Position numbers and translations under genes: made by a program. From contig CALVOX010000002.1 in NCBI GenBank assembly GCA_944350425.1, forward strand, positions 83,649 through 147,648: a stretch of DNA of 64,000 nucleotides, given 5' to 3'. The notes under the pieces are model-generated. The model was not told where the DNA came from and searched no databases. It saw only the letters and a list, made by a program, of their open reading frames with translations. Positions 157 to 38,830 of the stretch are shown here, piece after piece. This DNA is from an uncultured Bacilli bacterium (GTDB lineage Bacteria; Bacillota_I; Bacilli_A; RFN20; CAG-826). Position 1 is the first letter of the stretch; each line of letters opens with the position of its first letter.

Positions 157-1503
157 TTACAAAGGCGATATTCCTAAAATTTCATCAAAACATTTAAATA
201 AACGAGAAAAATCTCTTTTATTAATTTCATCTTTAGTTAATACAAACGGAATTTTTGCTACTATAATCTTAGGTTTTTGAAAGTTATTCTCAATATTTAA
301 AGTTTTAGTAACTATTTCAAAATTAGTATTATTTTTTAAAGGATAAAGCAAAATACCGATATTTGATTTATAGAATAAGACATAGTTAACAATTTGGTAA
401 ATATCATTTCTTTTAACATCGTCAAAACCATTTATATCTTTATACTTTGTATCTAAAATACATATAACATTATCGTTACTATCTTTAATCAGATTATCTG
501 TTTTTAGTGGAAATTTATTAGAATCTAAAAATAGTTTTCCATCATTATATTGCGGATAATTACAATATATTGATTTTTCTTTATTTAAAATAGTTAAATA
601 ATCATTTATCCTATTTGTAATAAATTTTTCGAATAATATATCCATTTTAAAGATAAAGCAAAAATTAATACCATTTTGCGAATTACTTTTTATATCAATA
701 TCAATCATTCCTTTTAAAATTATCTTAGCTAACAAAATTACATTTTTATAATCTTTATTTAATGCATTAAAATGAATTGATTCTATTAATCTTTTGAATA
801 ATTTTAAGTTTATATCACTTACTTCTTCAAATATAATCGATAATCTTTTCAATTTAGATTTATTTCGAAAACTTTTAGTTTTATTTAAAAATAGTTTTAT
901 ACAAAATTTTAAAATTTGATTAATATTATTATCAAAGCTAAAAACAACATATTCACAATTCAATAGATGTTTCTTTCCGTTAATATAGTTTTTAACATAA
1001 TTGTTAAAAACTATTCTACCACATACTTTATTTAAATCAGCATTACGCTCAATGTATGAATAATTTGGTTTTATAGCTAATAAACGGTCGATTTCATTAA
1101 TAAATTGAGTAATCAAAAACTCAAAACATGTTTCTTTATCATAATTAATCATATTTTCAGTTTTTTTGAATTTAACATTAAAGTAATCTTCTAGGTATAG
1201 ATTAAAATTATCAATGAATAAATTAAAACTTTCCTTCGAGTTAATTTCATCAAAAGGAAAAGGAAAAATATGAAAAATAGTATCTTTAAATATTATCTCT
1301 CCTAAATAGTGATTAATACGAAATGTTCTAGATGATAAATTAATTGAGATAATGGAATTGTCATCTTCTTCTTTGTTTACAAATAAATTATTTTCTAGGA
1401 CAATGTACTTTTTTATAAAGTTACAAAAATCTTCTATATCCTCTAGACTCCGATTTTTAGGAAATTCGATATTTTCTTTATCGAAACGATTTAATAAATG
1501 CAT
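157..1503 (-). CDS. mcrC: McrC-family restriction endonuclease subunit
   Basis: Directly downstream of mcrB. PD-(D/E)xK-type C-terminus (KTDNLI...ILDTKYK...DIYQIVNY...GILLYP), plus LFEKFI and GRI/DNNINQILK McrC-like segments. Confidence 0.85.
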   Translation of the reverse strand: MHLLNRFDKENIEFPKNRSLEDIEDFCNFIKKYIVLENNLFVNKEEDDNSIISINLSSRTFRINHYLGEIIFKDTIFHIFPFPFDEINSKESFNLFIDNFNLYLEDYFNVKFKKTENMINYDKETCFEFLITQFINEIDRLLAIKPNYSYIERNADLNKVCGRIVFNNYVKNYINGKKHLLNCEYVVFSFDNNINQILKFCIKLFLNKTKSFRNKSKLKRLSIIFEEVSDINLKLFKRLIESIHFNALNKDYKNVILLAKIILKGMIDIDIKSNSQNGINFCFIFKMDILFEKFITNRINDYLTILNKEKSIYCNYPQYNDGKLFLDSNKFPLKTDNLIKDSNDNVICILDTKYKDINGFDDVKRNDIYQIVNYVLFYKSNIGILLYPLKNNTNFEIVTKTLNIENNFQKPKIIVAKIPFVLTKDEINKRDFSRLFKCFDEILGISPL

Positions 1504-1506
1504 ATT

Positions 1507-3273
1507 TTAATTTCTTTTAACTGTAATTCGCCCAAATGAAAAAGAATCATTACTGATATCATCGCCAGTTGCAACAGTTACACATTGGCTATACTTAATA
1601 TTATTATCGTTATCATTGATTACGCTATCTAACGAATATTCTAAAATTTCCTTTACTTCATTTTTATTATCTGAGCAAATTTCATAAAGCAGAGGAATAA
1701 TTTTAAAATTTAAAACAAATATTAAATGATCAATTGAATCATCAAAAGTTTTATCATCATCAGAATCATACATAAAATACGAATGACCAATAACTAAGTC
1801 ATCGTTTTGATATTTTTCTTTAATTTTCTTATTTAAACGAACATAAAAGTTTTTATAATTATCATCAACAATCTCAGGATTAATTTTAATCTCAAAGAAA
1901 TTAAACCTTCTTCTTAAGGCTACATCAATTAAGGAAATAGATTTATCGCTCGAATTCATTGTGCCTATAATAAAAAGGTTATTTGGAACACTGAAATCTT
2001 CGTTATTTGGTAATTTTATAGTTTCACCTCTTTTAGAAGACTCAATTAATGTTATTAGTTCACCAAAAATACGAGAGATATTTCCTCTATTAATCTCGTC
2101 AATAATTAAACAGTAATTATTATTTGGGTTTTCTGATGCTTTTTCGCAAATGTTTTTGAAAATACCATTTTTCCAAACAAATAATAAATTATTTTCAACA
2201 ACTTTTGGTCTTATACCACCAATAAAATCTTCATAAGAATAACTTTGATGAAAGGTTATAAAAGAAATTCTACCTTCTTCCACTAATGCATTGTATTGCT
2301 CAATAGGATATTCGTAATCTTCGCCAATGTCAAAATCATCATTCTCTAATTTCGGATCTTCATTCATTGCAAGTTTCACAGCAAGATATACTGATGTATA
2401 TGTTTTTCCAGTACCTGGTACACCATATAGAATTATATTATGATATTTTGACTTATCAACAAGTTGCACTCTACTTACATCTACTTCTTGTTTGCTGTCA
2501 ATATCAGAGCTTTCTTTACGGGTTAAATCGTTAACAATCTTTTGAATAACATTATTTTCAGGAATACATAAATTAAATGAATTCAATTTCAAACTTATAA
2601 GACCATTAACAATTAATCGATCATAATCTTTTTTATCAATATTTAAAAAATTCGAAACTTTACTAATCCAGTTCCAATTATACCAACAAGAAAAAATATT
2701 TGGATAAAGTATGGAAAGATACTTAAAAATCCACATATTATATAGCTTAAAGTTAAATTTATTATTTGCCTTGTCATTCAATTCTTTTGCTTTATCGTAT
2801 ATTAATTGATTTAACTCAAAATAATCGGTTTCAGTTACTTTTTCCTTAACCGAAATAGATTTGGCTTTAGTTAAAATATCAAATAAAATTTGAAGAAATA
2901 TTGGTGCTAATGATTTAATTTCGTCTTCACTAATTTCTCTCGTTTTTCCAGTTCTCCAAGACCCGCTGGAGCCAAACCATAAAGGAAATTTAGCAGAGCT
3001 ACCTCCTTTAATTGAACCATTATTAATAAATCTTTTGTCTCTTTCTATTACATAAATCAAAGAAAATGAATCTTTATTACCGAAAAAATGCTTCATAAAA
3101 TCCAATCGGTCAAAGTCATTATTTTCCTTAACTTTGTTTAAATAAGTTAAACCATATTCTTTTTCAAACCAATCTCTATTTGGTTCAAACGAATTTTTTA
3201 AACCTATAATAAATTGATCATTCATATCATTATATTTATTAAGTATCGCTTGTTTTAATTCATTTTCATTCAT
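1507..3273 (-). CDS. mcrB: McrB-family AAA+ GTPase (restriction specificity/motor subunit)
   Basis: GVPGTGKT Walker A, FHQSYSYEDFIGG, IIDEINRGN Walker B, GTMNSSD (NxxD), ALRRRF, GHSYF. The N-terminal ~260 aa domain is not recognised. Confidence 0.9.
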   Translation of the reverse strand: MNENELKQAILNKYNDMNDQFIIGLKNSFEPNRDWFEKEYGLTYLNKVKENNDFDRLDFMKHFFGNKDSFSLIYVIERDKRFINNGSIKGGSSAKFPLWFGSSGSWRTGKTREISEDEIKSLAPIFLQILFDILTKAKSISVKEKVTETDYFELNQLIYDKAKELNDKANNKFNFKLYNMWIFKYLSILYPNIFSCWYNWNWISKVSNFLNIDKKDYDRLIVNGLISLKLNSFNLCIPENNVIQKIVNDLTRKESSDIDSKQEVDVSRVQLVDKSKYHNIILYGVPGTGKTYTSVYLAVKLAMNEDPKLENDDFDIGEDYEYPIEQYNALVEEGRISFITFHQSYSYEDFIGGIRPKVVENNLLFVWKNGIFKNICEKASENPNNNYCLIIDEINRGNISRIFGELITLIESSKRGETIKLPNNEDFSVPNNLFIIGTMNSSDKSISLIDVALRRRFNFFEIKINPEIVDDNYKNFYVRLNKKIKEKYQNDDLVIGHSYFMYDSDDDKTFDDSIDHLIFVLNFKIIPLLYEICSDNKNEVKEILEYSLDSVINDNDNNIKYSQCVTVATGDDISNDSFSFGRITVKRN

Positions 3274-22082: not shown

Positions 22083-23126
22083 TTAAAAATTTGAAACAAA
22101 AGATGAAAAATTAAATTTTTCATAGTTAAGTTTTGGTAAATCGTGTTCGAATTTATTAATCGATAAAGTTGTTTCGCATTTAAAAATCGTTGGAATTTCT
22201 TCTCCTAAAAGATAACCGAATCTTGAAAAAGAAGCTTGAAAACTCATTCCGCTTGCATAATCGGCATAAATTCCAGACTCATCATTTGACCTAAAATAAT
22301 CAAATTTAAAGGATGGACAAAAATTAGGATTTAATTTGGTTTTTATGCTTGGTGAGTTAATTAATGCCTTGTATGATAAGCTGAATTGATTACATTCAAT
22401 ACTTTCGTTCATTGAATTTCCTTCAATATAAATTTTATTATCTTTTCTAGTAACTACTTCAGTTGGTAAATAACCAACTAGCGGGATAAATTCATTATTT
22501 TTATCAATCGTAAAAGATAGATAATCTATTCTAGAATTTTCGTTTGCTGCAATTGTTGCAAAGTTAGCAAATAAATATTCCCCGCCAATATTTGAAACAT
22601 TGGATTTAAATAGGTAATTTTGAAGAAAAAGATAACCATAGTTGTTGTTATACCCATCGAGTGAAATGCAATTAGCTCTTGTTTGAGCTAAGTCCCGATT
22701 TGAACCAATGTTAAATTGATGTTCAAGATCTCTTAAACCATATGGAGGATTTTCAGCTGTAATGATTAAATTAATCAACAATTCATGAACTTTGCGAGGT
22801 GTGGAAAAATTAGTTGCAAAAATATCGCCCAATATTTCTTCATCTTCATTAACCCATCTAAAATCACCGAATTTAATTAGAGTTACCTCATCACTCTTTG
22901 AAGCGTTATTATTTTGATTTTCTTCAAGAAAATCAAAATAATATATATTTATATTTAAGTCTACATGTCTACTATTATAGCCATATGTTCCATCTTCTCG
23001 TAAAAGCATTTCTTTTAAATCAGAAACGTCAAACTTTAAACCGTTTTTCCTAGAATCTTCATTTTGACAACTACAAAGAGAAAATAGCGTAATAGCAAAC
23101 AAACAAAGAACTCTATTTCTTTTCAT
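22083..23126 (-). CDS. Lipoprotein, unknown function
   Basis: Lipobox LCSC. Contains an in-frame CGG at codon 144. Confidence 0.7.
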   Translation of the reverse strand: MKRNRVLCLFAITLFSLCSCQNEDSRKNGLKFDVSDLKEMLLREDGTYGYNSRHVDLNINIYYFDFLEENQNNNASKSDEVTLIKFGDFRWVNEDEEILGDIFATNFSTPRKVHELLINLIITAENPPYGLRDLEHQFNIGSNRDLAQTRANCISLDGYNNNYGYLFLQNYLFKSNVSNIGGEYLFANFATIAANENSRIDYLSFTIDKNNEFIPLVGYLPTEVVTRKDNKIYIEGNSMNESIECNQFSLSYKALINSPSIKTKLNPNFCPSFKFDYFRSNDESGIYADYASGMSFQASFSRFGYLLGEEIPTIFKCETTLSINKFEHDLPKLNYEKFNFSSFVSNF

Positions 23127-23591
23127 AGAAGACCTCTTTGATAACTAAATAAACTAAAAAGATAATTAACAATATATCAAAATAAAATAAGCAATTAAAT
23201 AAAATTTGACCAAAGGTTGAAAAATCAATAAACCGCCATGCCCATGAGCTTCTTTTATAAAAAATTAATGGATTTAAATTAGCGTAAAGAAAAACATACC
23301 AAAAGAAATTTCTGCTAATATCAAAAAAATACATATGAGTAATATTTTAAAAGATCTCTTATCTAATTTAATATAATAGCATTCCATTCCATATATTAAA
23401 TAATCAAGACTAACATTATATTTAGAAACAATTGCATCTAAAAGGTCAAGGCTAACTCCGCCATTACCATTTTCTACTTTTGAAATAACTTGCCTAGATA
23501 TATTTAAACTTTCCGCAAATGTTACTTGGGTTAAATTATTTTTTACTCTAATATCTTTAATTCTTTTTCCGATTTCTTCTTCATTAATCAT
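23113..23591 (-). pseudogene. XRE-family HTH regulator with membrane domain, apparently frameshifted near 23275
   Basis: HTH (IGKRIKDIR..LTQ..FAESL..SRQVISKVENG..VSLDYLIYG) plus a TM helix ends at TAA 23274. The overlapping frame continues NPLIFY...second TM. Confidence 0.65.
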
Positions 23592-33588: not shown

Positions 33589-33984
33589 TTAATATTTAGC
33601 ATGATAAGCATAAGGAATTAATTCTATTGCTTTTACTTTCTTTAAACCATTATTAGTATTAATAATTACATAGCAATCAGGAATATAATCAGAAAATATT
33701 TGACGGCAATTACCACATGGACTCATTATTTCATCATTTTCTCCATTAACTGCTACTATTGTATCAAATTCTCTTTTCCCATCTGTTAAAGCTTTACCTA
33801 AAGCAATTTGTTCAGCGCATGCTCCATGAACTGAATAGACATTAATTCCTAAATAAATGCTTCCATCTTTACATCTTAAAGCTGAACCAACAGTATGATT
33901 AAAATTTATTCCATCATAATTCTTTTTAATTACTTCTTTAGCTTTTTCAATTAATTCATAATCTAAACTATTTAATTCTTCCAT
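33589..33984 (-). CDS. Cytidine deaminase-family protein
   Basis: HTVGSAL, GACAE, SPCGNCRQ, ELIPYAY. Confidence 0.85.
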   Translation of the reverse strand: MEELNSLDYELIEKAKEVIKKNYDGINFNHTVGSALRCKDGSIYLGINVYSVHGACAEQIALGKALTDGKREFDTIVAVNGENDEIMSPCGNCRQIFSDYIPDCYVIINTNNGLKKVKAIELIPYAYHAKY

Positions 33985-34603: not shown

Positions 34604-34677
34604 TGGCATGCCTAAGAGGAATCGAACCTCTAAATCTGACTTCGGAGATCAGCGGTTTACCATTAACCTATAGGCAT
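34604..34677 (-). tRNA. tRNA with CCG anticodon and Trp-like body (putative tRNA-Trp(CCG))
   Basis: 74 nt: ATGCCTA-TA-GGTT-AATGGTA-AACC-G-CTGAT-CT-CCG-AA-GTCAG-ATTT-AGAGG-TTCGATT-CCTCT-TAGGCAT-G-CCA. U20, A1:U72, G73. The tRNA gene itself is certain; the Trp identity is inferred. Confidence 0.9.
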
Positions 34678-36873: not shown

Positions 36874-37171
36874 TATTTTTCCTCCTAATTATGTGAAGAG
36901 TTTTTTGAATAACTGAATTAATGATAACACGAACTTAAGAAAATACACATATATTTTTATTATTAATTAAGATTTTTATTTTTATTAAGAAAGAAGGATA
37001 AAAATAATAAAAATAAGAATGAAAATTGCAAAAATATAATTTTAGTTTTAAATACTAGATATAATAGTTTTTGGAATCTTAAAATTTAAATATCAATGAT
37101 ATTTATGTTGCAATCTTCATTTTTTAGTGTAATATAATGTTAAGCGAAGTTATCGCTATTTGGTTTTGTTT

Positions 37172-38830
37172 ATGAAAAAAAATTTACATATATTTGGTCT
37201 AAGTTTGATTCTTTCAAATTTAGTTACGTCTTGCGGCTTTAATCAAACTGCTTCAATCGATCAAAAACTTCTTCTTGATCCTTTTAAAGCATATACGATG
37301 ATTAATAACTACTACCAAGATGAAGCAAGATTATATTATGTTGAAACTAGTGGTGAACTTGTTTCTTCAAGAGGAAATAAAGAGTTAATTAAAGAATACA
37401 AAGTTAAAGATGGAAAAAAATTCTATTCTTTGAAATCTACTAAGTCTGATTTATTTGATCCAATATCTTTTAAAAGATATTTTAATGAAGTAGAAAATGA
37501 ATATGCAGTTTCTTTTAAGGATGAATCAGATGATATGATTTTTGTTGATACCAATAGCGAAACTCAATATTCAACTTTTTCTTTTTTAGACCATAAAAAT
37601 TATTCAGATACTTATGGTTATGATTTAAAAAGTATTACTAATTTTACAGTTTTTGATGGATATGAAAATTTGTCATTTAAAGAAGCTAAAATTAGTCGTA
37701 ATTCAAATAGTGAAATAGAATATTCCTATACTTTGAATTTATCATCAAAGCTAAATAATGGGGTTCAAATTAGCGAAGAAGATATTTCCTCATATTCTTC
37801 AATTAATGCTACTGTTTTAGAAGCTAGAGAAATTGATGCAATTAATGAGTTAAATGATGTAAATATTAAAGAAGCTTCTTTCAAACTTCTTTTTGATAAA
37901 ATTCGTAATGAAATTAATCAAATTATCGTAAACGAAACTTTAACTATTGGAAGCGTTCCTTTTACCTATACTTATACTTCAAATTTCCATACCTATATGA
38001 AAGAAAATCCGCTTCCTGGAACGACTCTACCAAATAAATATCAAGAATTAGTTAACGATATTTCTTCATCAATAGAATCTTCAAAAGATGTTCTTGTTGA
38101 AAATCTTTATATCGCATATCTAGATTTAAACAAAAAATATAAAGAAAAGAATTACTATACTACGACTGAATCTAGTGTCGAAGCTTTAGGTGGAATATAT
38201 TCTCAAACCGTTAAAGGATTTAAACTTAAAAATGATGATGATTATTTCTTCCAAACTGTAACTACTTCAGCTTTTGTTAATAAAGCCGAACAAAGATTTG
38301 AAAATCAAGTTGGAAATAAATATATGCTTGCTTCAGGAAATAATCCAAGTTCAAATTCAACTATCGGAAGTTGTGATTCACGGAACAATTTCGATGATTT
38401 GACAAAAGAGGAATATTTATTAAATATTGGGCATACAATGGATAACATTACAAATTACATTGTTGATGAAAATGATCCATCTAAATCATTTATAAATGCT
38501 ACTTCTTCAACTATTGATGGTAAGAAAGTTTATAGTTTTGAAATGTCGGTTAATGAAGATGATAACCACATAGATTCAACAAAAGATTACAAAGTTGAAA
38601 TGAATCATATGTCAAATATGGGACTTCCTTCATTCTCTTATTCAAATATTGAAATTCATCTTAAGGAAAATGAAGAAATTGATAAGATTGTTCAAAAGGA
38701 AAAATATAAGACTGGTGGTTTTGAATGTACTTCGACAATGACTACTTATTTCCATACCTATTCAGATATTAACGAGATTCCAAATGATATATTAAGTTTG
38801 TATAACGAAAGAATTAAAGGAGAGAATTAA
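37172..38830 (+). CDS. Lipoprotein built from two tandem homologous domains
   Basis: Start MKKNLH, lipobox VTSC. N-half YSDTYGYDLKSITNFTV aligns to C-half YLLNIGHTMDNITNYIV. Confidence 0.75.
   Translation: MKKNLHIFGLSLILSNLVTSCGFNQTASIDQKLLLDPFKAYTMINNYYQDEARLYYVETSGELVSSRGNKELIKEYKVKDGKKFYSLKSTKSDLFDPISFKRYFNEVENEYAVSFKDESDDMIFVDTNSETQYSTFSFLDHKNYSDTYGYDLKSITNFTVFDGYENLSFKEAKISRNSNSEIEYSYTLNLSSKLNNGVQISEEDISSYSSINATVLEAREIDAINELNDVNIKEASFKLLFDKIRNEINQIIVNETLTIGSVPFTYTYTSNFHTYMKENPLPGTTLPNKYQELVNDISSSIESSKDVLVENLYIAYLDLNKKYKEKNYYTTTESSVEALGGIYSQTVKGFKLKNDDDYFFQTVTTSAFVNKAEQRFENQVGNKYMLASGNNPSSNSTIGSCDSRNNFDDLTKEEYLLNIGHTMDNITNYIVDENDPSKSFINATSSTIDGKKVYSFEMSVNEDDNHIDSTKDYKVEMNHMSNMGLPSFSYSNIEIHLKENEEIDKIVQKEKYKTGGFECTSTMTTYFHTYSDINEIPNDILSLYNERIKGEN

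Follow-up and report, generated by a model that had tools for sequence, protein, structure and literature searches.

Evidence that CGG is probably read as tryptophan in an uncultured Bacilli bacterium

The 64,000-nucleotide stretch of DNA analysed here (the window, G000:C2:83649-147648, where G000 is the label for the window's genome, assembly GCA_944350425.1) comes from an uncultured Bacilli bacterium, and carries a gene for an internally duplicated lipoprotein-like protein with an in-frame CGG codon, as well as, a few kilobases away, a gene for a transfer RNA with the anticodon CCG, tRNA(CCG). Judged by a codon-by-codon comparison with a sister species, by the orthologues of the CGG-bearing genes, and by the features of this tRNA, CGG is, with high confidence, a sense codon for tryptophan and not for arginine in this organism, a reading drawn from genome sequences throughout.

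Exchange of CGG and TGG between sister species

The G000 assembly comprises 1.15 Mb in 17 contigs at 27.7% GC (0.277), and is 95.4% complete and 0.04% contaminated. Across the whole genome, 77 in-frame CGG and 1,662 TGG were counted among 342,972 codons in 975 open reading frames (ORFs), corresponding to 2.2 and 48.5 per 10,000 codons, respectively, and to a CGG share of 4.4% of the genome's tryptophan codons, taken as CGG plus TGG. TGA is the terminator of 54 of the 975 ORFs, and translation under table 11 leaves long ORFs intact. The window ORF set contains 52 non-overlapping ORFs of at least 40 amino acids (aa), 19,314 codons in all, with 3 in-frame CGG and 80 TGG; the trinucleotide CGG occurs 39 times in phase 1 and 124 times in phase 2 and is thus common in both other phases, so that its avoidance is specific to the reading frame.

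The closest relative, the sister species G072 (1,235,153 bases, 94 in-frame CGG in total), was aligned with G000 codon by codon over 841 orthologue pairs (median identity 92.7%). The G072 codons found opposite three groups of G000 codons are given below, the other five Arg codons being AGA, AGG, CGA, CGC and CGT.

G000 CGG, 60 aligned: TGG 53, CGG 7, other five Arg codons 0
G000 other five Arg codons, 9,348 aligned: TGG 1, CGG 0, other five Arg codons 8,523
G000 TGG, 1,372 aligned: TGG 1,326, CGG 30, other five Arg codons 1

The contrast in TGG between the CGG row and the row of the other Arg codons has a Fisher p of 2.6e-131. Read in the opposite direction, the 41 aligned CGG of G072 stand against TGG (30), CGG (7), GAA (2), TAT (1), CTT (1) and TGT (1) in G000, and among 1,416 Trp sites the two sisters show 83 TGG/CGG differences and 7 shared CGG. 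The codon CGA, by the same comparison, behaves as Arg, with 191 of 456 aligned positions facing AGA, 130 facing CGA and 62 facing CGT. The equivalence of CGG with TGG is established on the codon side: in the sister matrix, CGG and TGG interchange as synonymous codons do, and CGG never does so with another Arg codon. Since G072 uses the same code, the matrix shows synonymy with TGG, and not the chemistry of insertion.

The CGG codon at 38381-38383

The codon and its gene are as follows.

38381..38383, plus strand: in-frame CGG, codon 408 of the lipoprotein ORF, from the sequence read and the ORF position
37160..38830, plus strand: lipoprotein-like ORF, 556 aa, internally duplicated, from the ORF call

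The translated N-terminus of this ORF reads as a signal peptide ending in Cys, and searches against Pfam and NCBIfam assigned no family to it. The internal duplication had been noted in a first-pass annotation of the window, made by eye, and was recovered by a BLASTP comparison of the N-terminal with the C-terminal half (E = 3e-12), and by profile-profile alignment of the halves with hhalign (probability 99.3%, E = 1e-20), for which the half profiles were built from ten sequences (G000 and nine orthologues, with row L084 truncated at the column). The Tyr that the same annotation had placed opposite the CGG codon, in the other half of the protein, was found to be conserved in 9 of 9 sequences in the hhalign alignment.

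All 60 genomes of the genus were searched for homologues of the protein, which were found in 12 other species. The column of codon 408 is W, encoded as TGG, in 12/12 orthologous loci (identity near the site 39-86%), the sister species G072 also having TGG, and a thirteenth fragment (25% identity), matching the N-terminal repeat, has Y at the column. By this alignment, the CGG at 38381 is placed at the site of a tryptophan that is invariant across the genus orthologues. The annotation's proposal that CGG falls at aromatic or Trp-compatible positions is thereby borne out and sharpened to Trp, both here (12/12 orthologues) and genome-wide (53 of 60 aligned codons); conservation of Arg or Lys at the CGG columns, named there as the result that would speak against the proposal, was seen at neither of the two columns readable at the DNA level (in lipoprotein 37160 and in lipoprotein 22083, described below).

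The tRNA with anticodon CCG and the decoding inventory

A candidate decoder of CGG lies in the window.

34604..34677, minus strand: tRNA, anticodon CCG, labelled 'Arg' by ARAGORN (Rfam tRNA model, 66.1 bits)

This tRNA has G73 and A1-U72 (acceptor stem AUGCCUA / UAGGCAU), and a D-loop AAUGGUA of 7 nt, with U at position 20 and no A20. Its length of 74 nt and its 7-nt D-loop are the same as those of the genome's tRNA-Trp(CCA), and the three genuine Arg tRNAs (ACG, UCU, CCU) have a longer D-loop of the GGATAGA type with A20. Two published rules were applied (Shulgina & Eddy 2021, PMC8629427): a rule for provisional Trp acceptors, which takes G73 and a base other than A20, with A/G1:U72 as support, and a rule for Arg tRNAs, which takes A20 in the D-loop together with A/G73. 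The features of tRNA(CCG) agree with the Trp-acceptor rule, including its A/G1:U72 support, and depart from the Arg rule, the tRNA having U20 beside G73; they also depart from the canonical tRNA-Trp, position 36 being G and not A (anticodon CCG and not CCA). The 'Arg' label given by ARAGORN was not accepted, because it rests on the anticodon alone and A20 is absent.

An identical copy of tRNA(CCG) is present in G072. Among 16 tRNA(CCG) genes, mean identity is 0.59 to tRNA-Trp(CCA) versus 0.47-0.51 to the Arg tRNAs; an origin of tRNA(CCG) by duplication of tRNA-Trp was considered on this basis and not adopted, the identity leaning towards Trp and being too weak for that call. G000 has 42 tRNAs in total, tRNA-Arg(ACG) included, together with one tryptophanyl-tRNA synthetase (TrpRS) and one tyrosyl-tRNA synthetase (TyrRS). 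No tRNA(UCG) was found among the 42 tRNAs of G000 (a draft, 95.4% complete) or in G072, and no tRNA(UCA) was found among the 42.

With this inventory, a scheme can be proposed in which tRNA(CCG) would pair with CGG only, and would presumably be charged by the genome's single TrpRS despite G36, with tryptophan as the exclusive amino acid inserted. CGU, CGC and CGA would keep their Arg meaning by way of tRNA-Arg(ACG), whose anticodon would presumably be ICG, with inosine at position 34, and there would be no tRNA(UCG) to bridge CGA and CGG. Under the wobble rules inosine does not pair with G, so that CGG would be left free to change meaning, and would then serve as a rare synonym of TGG, entering and leaving Trp sites by T-to-C and C-to-T transitions.

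About 3-11 kb separate the tRNA(CCG) gene from the duplicated lipoprotein gene in G000, G030:C7, G007:C15, G024:C21 and G072:C10; this neighbourhood is conserved in the four relatives, and tRNA-Leu(CAA) is often close by. A deaminase gene near the tRNA (33589-33984) was considered as TadA and rejected, since its matches, which fall below the model cut-offs, are to cytidine deaminase and not to TadA. Elsewhere in the genome, ARAGORN predicted a transfer-messenger RNA (tmRNA) at G000:C4:57548-57907, with a hydrophobic tag peptide, DDYKFNLVFIISFLKCL, without the usual tail of the Ala-Ala type; this tag reflects either a mispredicted frame or an unusual tag.

CGG at conserved Trp sites of core enzymes

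CGG-bearing core genes in the genome include those for isoleucyl-, cysteinyl- and alanyl-tRNA synthetase (IleRS, CysRS and AlaRS) and for ribonucleotide reductase (RNR). At codon 92 of IleRS (CGG), in the motif G-W-D-T-H-G-L-P, TGG was found in 36/36 homologue loci covering the column (41 loci fetched, five not covering the column, 29-96% identity, distant phyla included). Codon 206 of CysRS (CGG) aligns with W in 3/3 solved structures shown, codon 140 of AlaRS (CGG) with W in the E. coli enzyme, W being one residue gap away in two Aquifex entries, and codon 175 of RNR (CGG) with W in one of two structures and with Y in the second. The first-pass annotation had stated that none of the CGG codons lies in a core gene, which holds in the window, where 21 core ORFs contain 31 TGG and 0 CGG (a zero expected by chance with P = 0.25 at a CGG share of 4.4%), and does not hold for the genome, given these four enzymes.

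The CysRS gene lies next to that of the single TrpRS (a 329-aa ORF), in divergent orientation (G000:C3:98249-100646). CGG stands at a conserved Trp of CysRS in G000 as well as in G072, and the G072 CysRS has a second CGG at another Trp.

Other CGG codons of the window

The remaining CGG codons considered in the window, and the ORF next to the last of them, are listed below (HTH, helix-turn-helix).

1450..1452, minus strand: in-frame CGG, codon 18 of McrC (ORF 157-1503; McrBC family by Pfam and NCBIfam)
22695..22697, minus strand: in-frame CGG, codon 144 of lipoprotein-like ORF 22083-23126, from the ORF call
23233..23235, minus strand: CGG within 23113-23346, a stop-to-stop frame of 77 aa that is offset by one base from the XRE HTH ORF
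23274..23591, minus strand: XRE-type HTH ORF, 105 aa (Pfam HTH_3, E = 6e-14)

Four in-frame CGG codons had been listed by eye, with the caution that others might have been missed. The computed count gave exactly three in the 52 window ORFs (38381-38383, 1450-1452 and 22695-22697, each at the exact position listed), and the hand scan had missed none; the fourth, at 23233-23235, does not share the frame of the XRE ORF to which it had been assigned, and would be in frame only if that gene is frameshifted.

For McrC, 5 homologues were found in 201 genomes of the order, with alignments that start only at residue 38, and a search with residues 1-80 against a collection of 5.8 billion proteins returned one protein, P0001, at 96% identity, which has R at the column of codon 18, as predicted under the standard code and with the DNA codon not visible. 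McrC (448 aa) forms a restriction pair of the McrBC type with a McrB-like AAA_5 GTPase (588 aa) at window positions 157-3273, minus strand; the pair is present in only 5/200 other sampled genomes of the order, and is probably an accessory defence island.

Lipoprotein 22083 has only three weak homologues (26-27% identity) in the 60 genus genomes, and the column of codon 144 is TGG in two of them and CGG in the third, within a conserved local motif, IGS(N/D)-X-(D/N). A paralogue in G074 (L096, G074:C5:35008-35808) has one in-frame TGA and a CGG at the aligned column, and may be a broken copy.

The XRE ORF 23274-23591 and the membrane-like frame 23113-23346 overlap, one base apart. For the tail, no match was found in G072 at the DNA level; at the protein level, a weak match (35.7% identity over 56 aa, E = 0.001) was found at C17:18160-18327, minus strand, of G072, which is an intact single-frame HTH-plus-membrane gene with CGG at the aligned column. 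Given this intact homologue, the XRE tail can be taken as coding and the G000 copy as frameshifted, the XRE ORF apparently being the 5' portion of an HTH-membrane gene split by a frameshift; either the copy is a pseudogene or the assembly is in error close to a T run. The CGG context is …LW-CGG-F… in the G072:C17 homologue versus …AW-CGG-F… in the XRE tail of G000, and the rare codon is retained in two diverged genes. The G072 homologue supports the tail as coding and, as it also has CGG, says nothing independent on the residue. Overall, two of the four columns are Trp (lipoproteins 37160 and 22083), two are uninformative, and none is contrary.

Distribution of the tRNA in and outside the genus

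A search with a sequence pattern of the tRNA(CCG) type found matches in 34/60 species of the genus counting G000 (33/59 others), and in 29/40 high-quality genomes. A BLAST search with tRNA(CCG) found it in 15/36 sampled genus members, all 15 with CCG, G73 and a short D-loop; absence of a tRNA refers to draft genomes.

Outside the genus, the pattern matched 12/361 genomes sampled from the order, a rate similar to that of a reversed-pattern control. Nine of these loci were checked (those in G398, G297 and G125 were not among them), and showed no tRNA at the match in 8 cases and a real tRNA(CCG) in one, in G385, a member of another genus. This tRNA (L191, G385:C113:1618-1640 region) has G73 and no A20, and its anticodon stem pairs poorly (3/5 pairs by eye). 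Among 234,875 bases sampled from G385, the 10 CGG that could be aligned faced Arg 4 times and Trp 0 times, and G385 was rejected as a second genus with CGG as Trp, its CGG columns looking like Arg; it serves as a negative control for the codon-comparison method.

Alternative explanations and points of doubt

Several observations weigh against tryptophan as the meaning of CGG. ORFs were called with a simple longest-ORF caller and not with a gene finder, and 17 of the 77 CGG codons of G000 have no aligned orthologous position and lie outside the sister matrix. Codon 699 of glycogen phosphorylase (CGG) aligns with R in both structures shown, and codon 381 of RNR (CGG) with V and F; both positions vary, and G072 has TGG at each, so that they are taken as lineage-specific Trp sites and not as contradictions. 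In G385, a Trp-type tRNA(CCG) stands beside Arg-like CGG, and the tRNA rule alone is therefore no proof. The amino acid actually inserted at CGG is one that we infer from codon columns and tRNA features. Finally, C35 and G36 are major determinants for arginyl-tRNA synthetase (ArgRS), and the CCA anticodon is reportedly a major determinant for TrpRS (Himeno 1991 and Giege 1998, cited in PMC8629427); tRNA(CCG) keeps both C35 and G36, and partial mischarging with Arg, and with it ambiguous decoding, is conceivable.

Ambiguous decoding would mean that some tRNA(CCG) molecules receive Trp and others Arg, or that CGG is read inefficiently, giving a mixture of proteins that is tolerated mostly where Trp is wanted. 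The retained ArgRS determinants are in its favour, as is the rarity of CGG at 4.4% of Trp codons, and Shulgina & Eddy state that computation cannot exclude ambiguous translation (PMC8629427). Against a mixture stand the CGG codons at conserved Trp of IleRS, CysRS and AlaRS, where Arg would harm, the finding that 0 of 60 aligned CGG face an Arg codon other than CGG, the absence of A20 from tRNA(CCG), and the turnover between TGG and CGG (83 differences and 7 shared among 1,416 sites), which resembles neutral synonymous change; ambiguous decoding is accordingly held to be improbable. The standard code, with CGG as Arg and the Trp columns as real W-to-R replacements or chance, would agree with the ARAGORN label, derived from the anticodon, and with the two alignments to PDB structures that put R or hydrophobic residues opposite CGG. 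It is contradicted by the matrix, in which CGG faces TGG 53 times and other Arg codons 0 times and true Arg codons face TGG once in 9,348, by the invariant catalytic-core Trp sites that would be affected, and by a tRNA(CCG) without A20, and it is considered very improbable.

Two further explanations are given less weight still, each being close to negligible. In plant mitochondria, an apparent 'CGG = Trp' is explained by C-to-U RNA editing, and editing of CGG into UGG in the mRNA would give the same pattern at the DNA level, with CGG at Trp columns. Editing would leave no purpose for the dedicated, conserved Trp-type tRNA(CCG) that G000 shares with 33/59 other species of the genus; no site-specific C-to-U editing of mRNA of this kind is known to us in Bacilli, no search for an editing system having been made. 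Sequencing or assembly errors, with T read as C, could create spurious CGG at TGG sites in a multi-contig assembly such as this one (17 contigs), but 7 CGG are common to the independently assembled G072, which itself has 94, CGG recurs at the same column in the homologues in G074 and G072, and a matching tRNA exists.

Comparison with known CGG reassignments

Reassignment of CGG to Trp has been published for uncultivated Bacilli (GTDB genus UBA4855, order RFN20), Anaerococcus and Absconditabacteria (Shulgina & Eddy 2021, PMC8629427). The four UBA4855 species called Trp have a GC content of 0.27-0.30, 0.9-2.5 CGG and 48-61 UGG per 10,000 codons, and a tRNA set of one ACG, no UCG, one CCG and one CCA (PMC8629427), and G000 matches this clade in GC, in the frequencies of CGG and UGG, and in the tRNA set. 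CGG at conserved Trp columns is likewise common to both, the published columns being those of single-copy genes. G000 is likened to UBA4855 by these features of the code, and not by phylogenetic placement. The published call covers four species and was made by inference from Pfam columns, whereas here the tRNA type was found in 34/60 species of the genus, and the meaning of the codon was approached by codon-by-codon comparison of sister species.

Anaerococcus resembles G000 in the codon and its meaning, in a Trp-like tRNA(CCG), in low GC and in very rare CGG. It differs in belonging to another class of Firmicutes, and in that the published work found no supporting examples of conserved columns for it, whereas G000 has many; the relatives found here are metagenome-assembled genomes labelled Bacilli, Mollicutes or Erysipelotrichaceae, and not Anaerococcus. 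Absconditabacteria (SR1) also use CGG as Trp in a small, low-GC genome, but there CGA and CGG are both read as Trp together with UGA as Gly (table 25 plus), whereas in G000 CGA is Arg-like and TGA terminates. The SR1 code does not describe G000, in which tRNA-Arg(ACG) is present and tRNA(UCA) and tRNA(UCG) were not found. In Mycoplasma capricolum, CGG is unassigned (Oba et al. 1991, cited in PMC8629427); this AT-rich, small-genome relative among Bacilli/Mollicutes, with CGG near zero, is alike as a presumed intermediate stage, and differs from G000, which uses CGG (77 codons) with a cognate tRNA.

A search of full-text literature from 2021 on found no work on CGG as Trp in Bacilli or UBA4855 beyond Shulgina & Eddy. 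The biology of this reassignment is already published; the present analysis is of value for confirming it, sharpening the method and widening the extent, and is not a discovery. New here are the sister-species codon matrix, and an indication that more than half of the species in a genus of 60 carry the tRNA.

Implications

Reassignments of sense codons are very rare in bacteria, five having been reported by the 2021 survey (PMC8629427). In G000, standard annotation writes Arg where the cell most likely inserts Trp. The 77 sites concerned take in residues from the catalytic core of three aminoacyl-tRNA synthetases, and such misreading of CGG is damaging to predicted proteins, to structural models and to searches for homologues. 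The sister-species codon matrix is simple, needs no profile database, and was unambiguous even at 77 codons, and it is usable for other suspected reassignments.

Beyond the four published species, the balance tips slightly towards CGG as Trp being the working code of most of a 60-species, gut-type Bacilli genus, in which CGG (4.4-4.9% of Trp codons) would be a freely drifting synonym of TGG, and a single TrpRS would accept both CCA and CCG anticodons. If this is true, such a TrpRS would be a natural enzyme with a relaxed reading of anticodon position 36.

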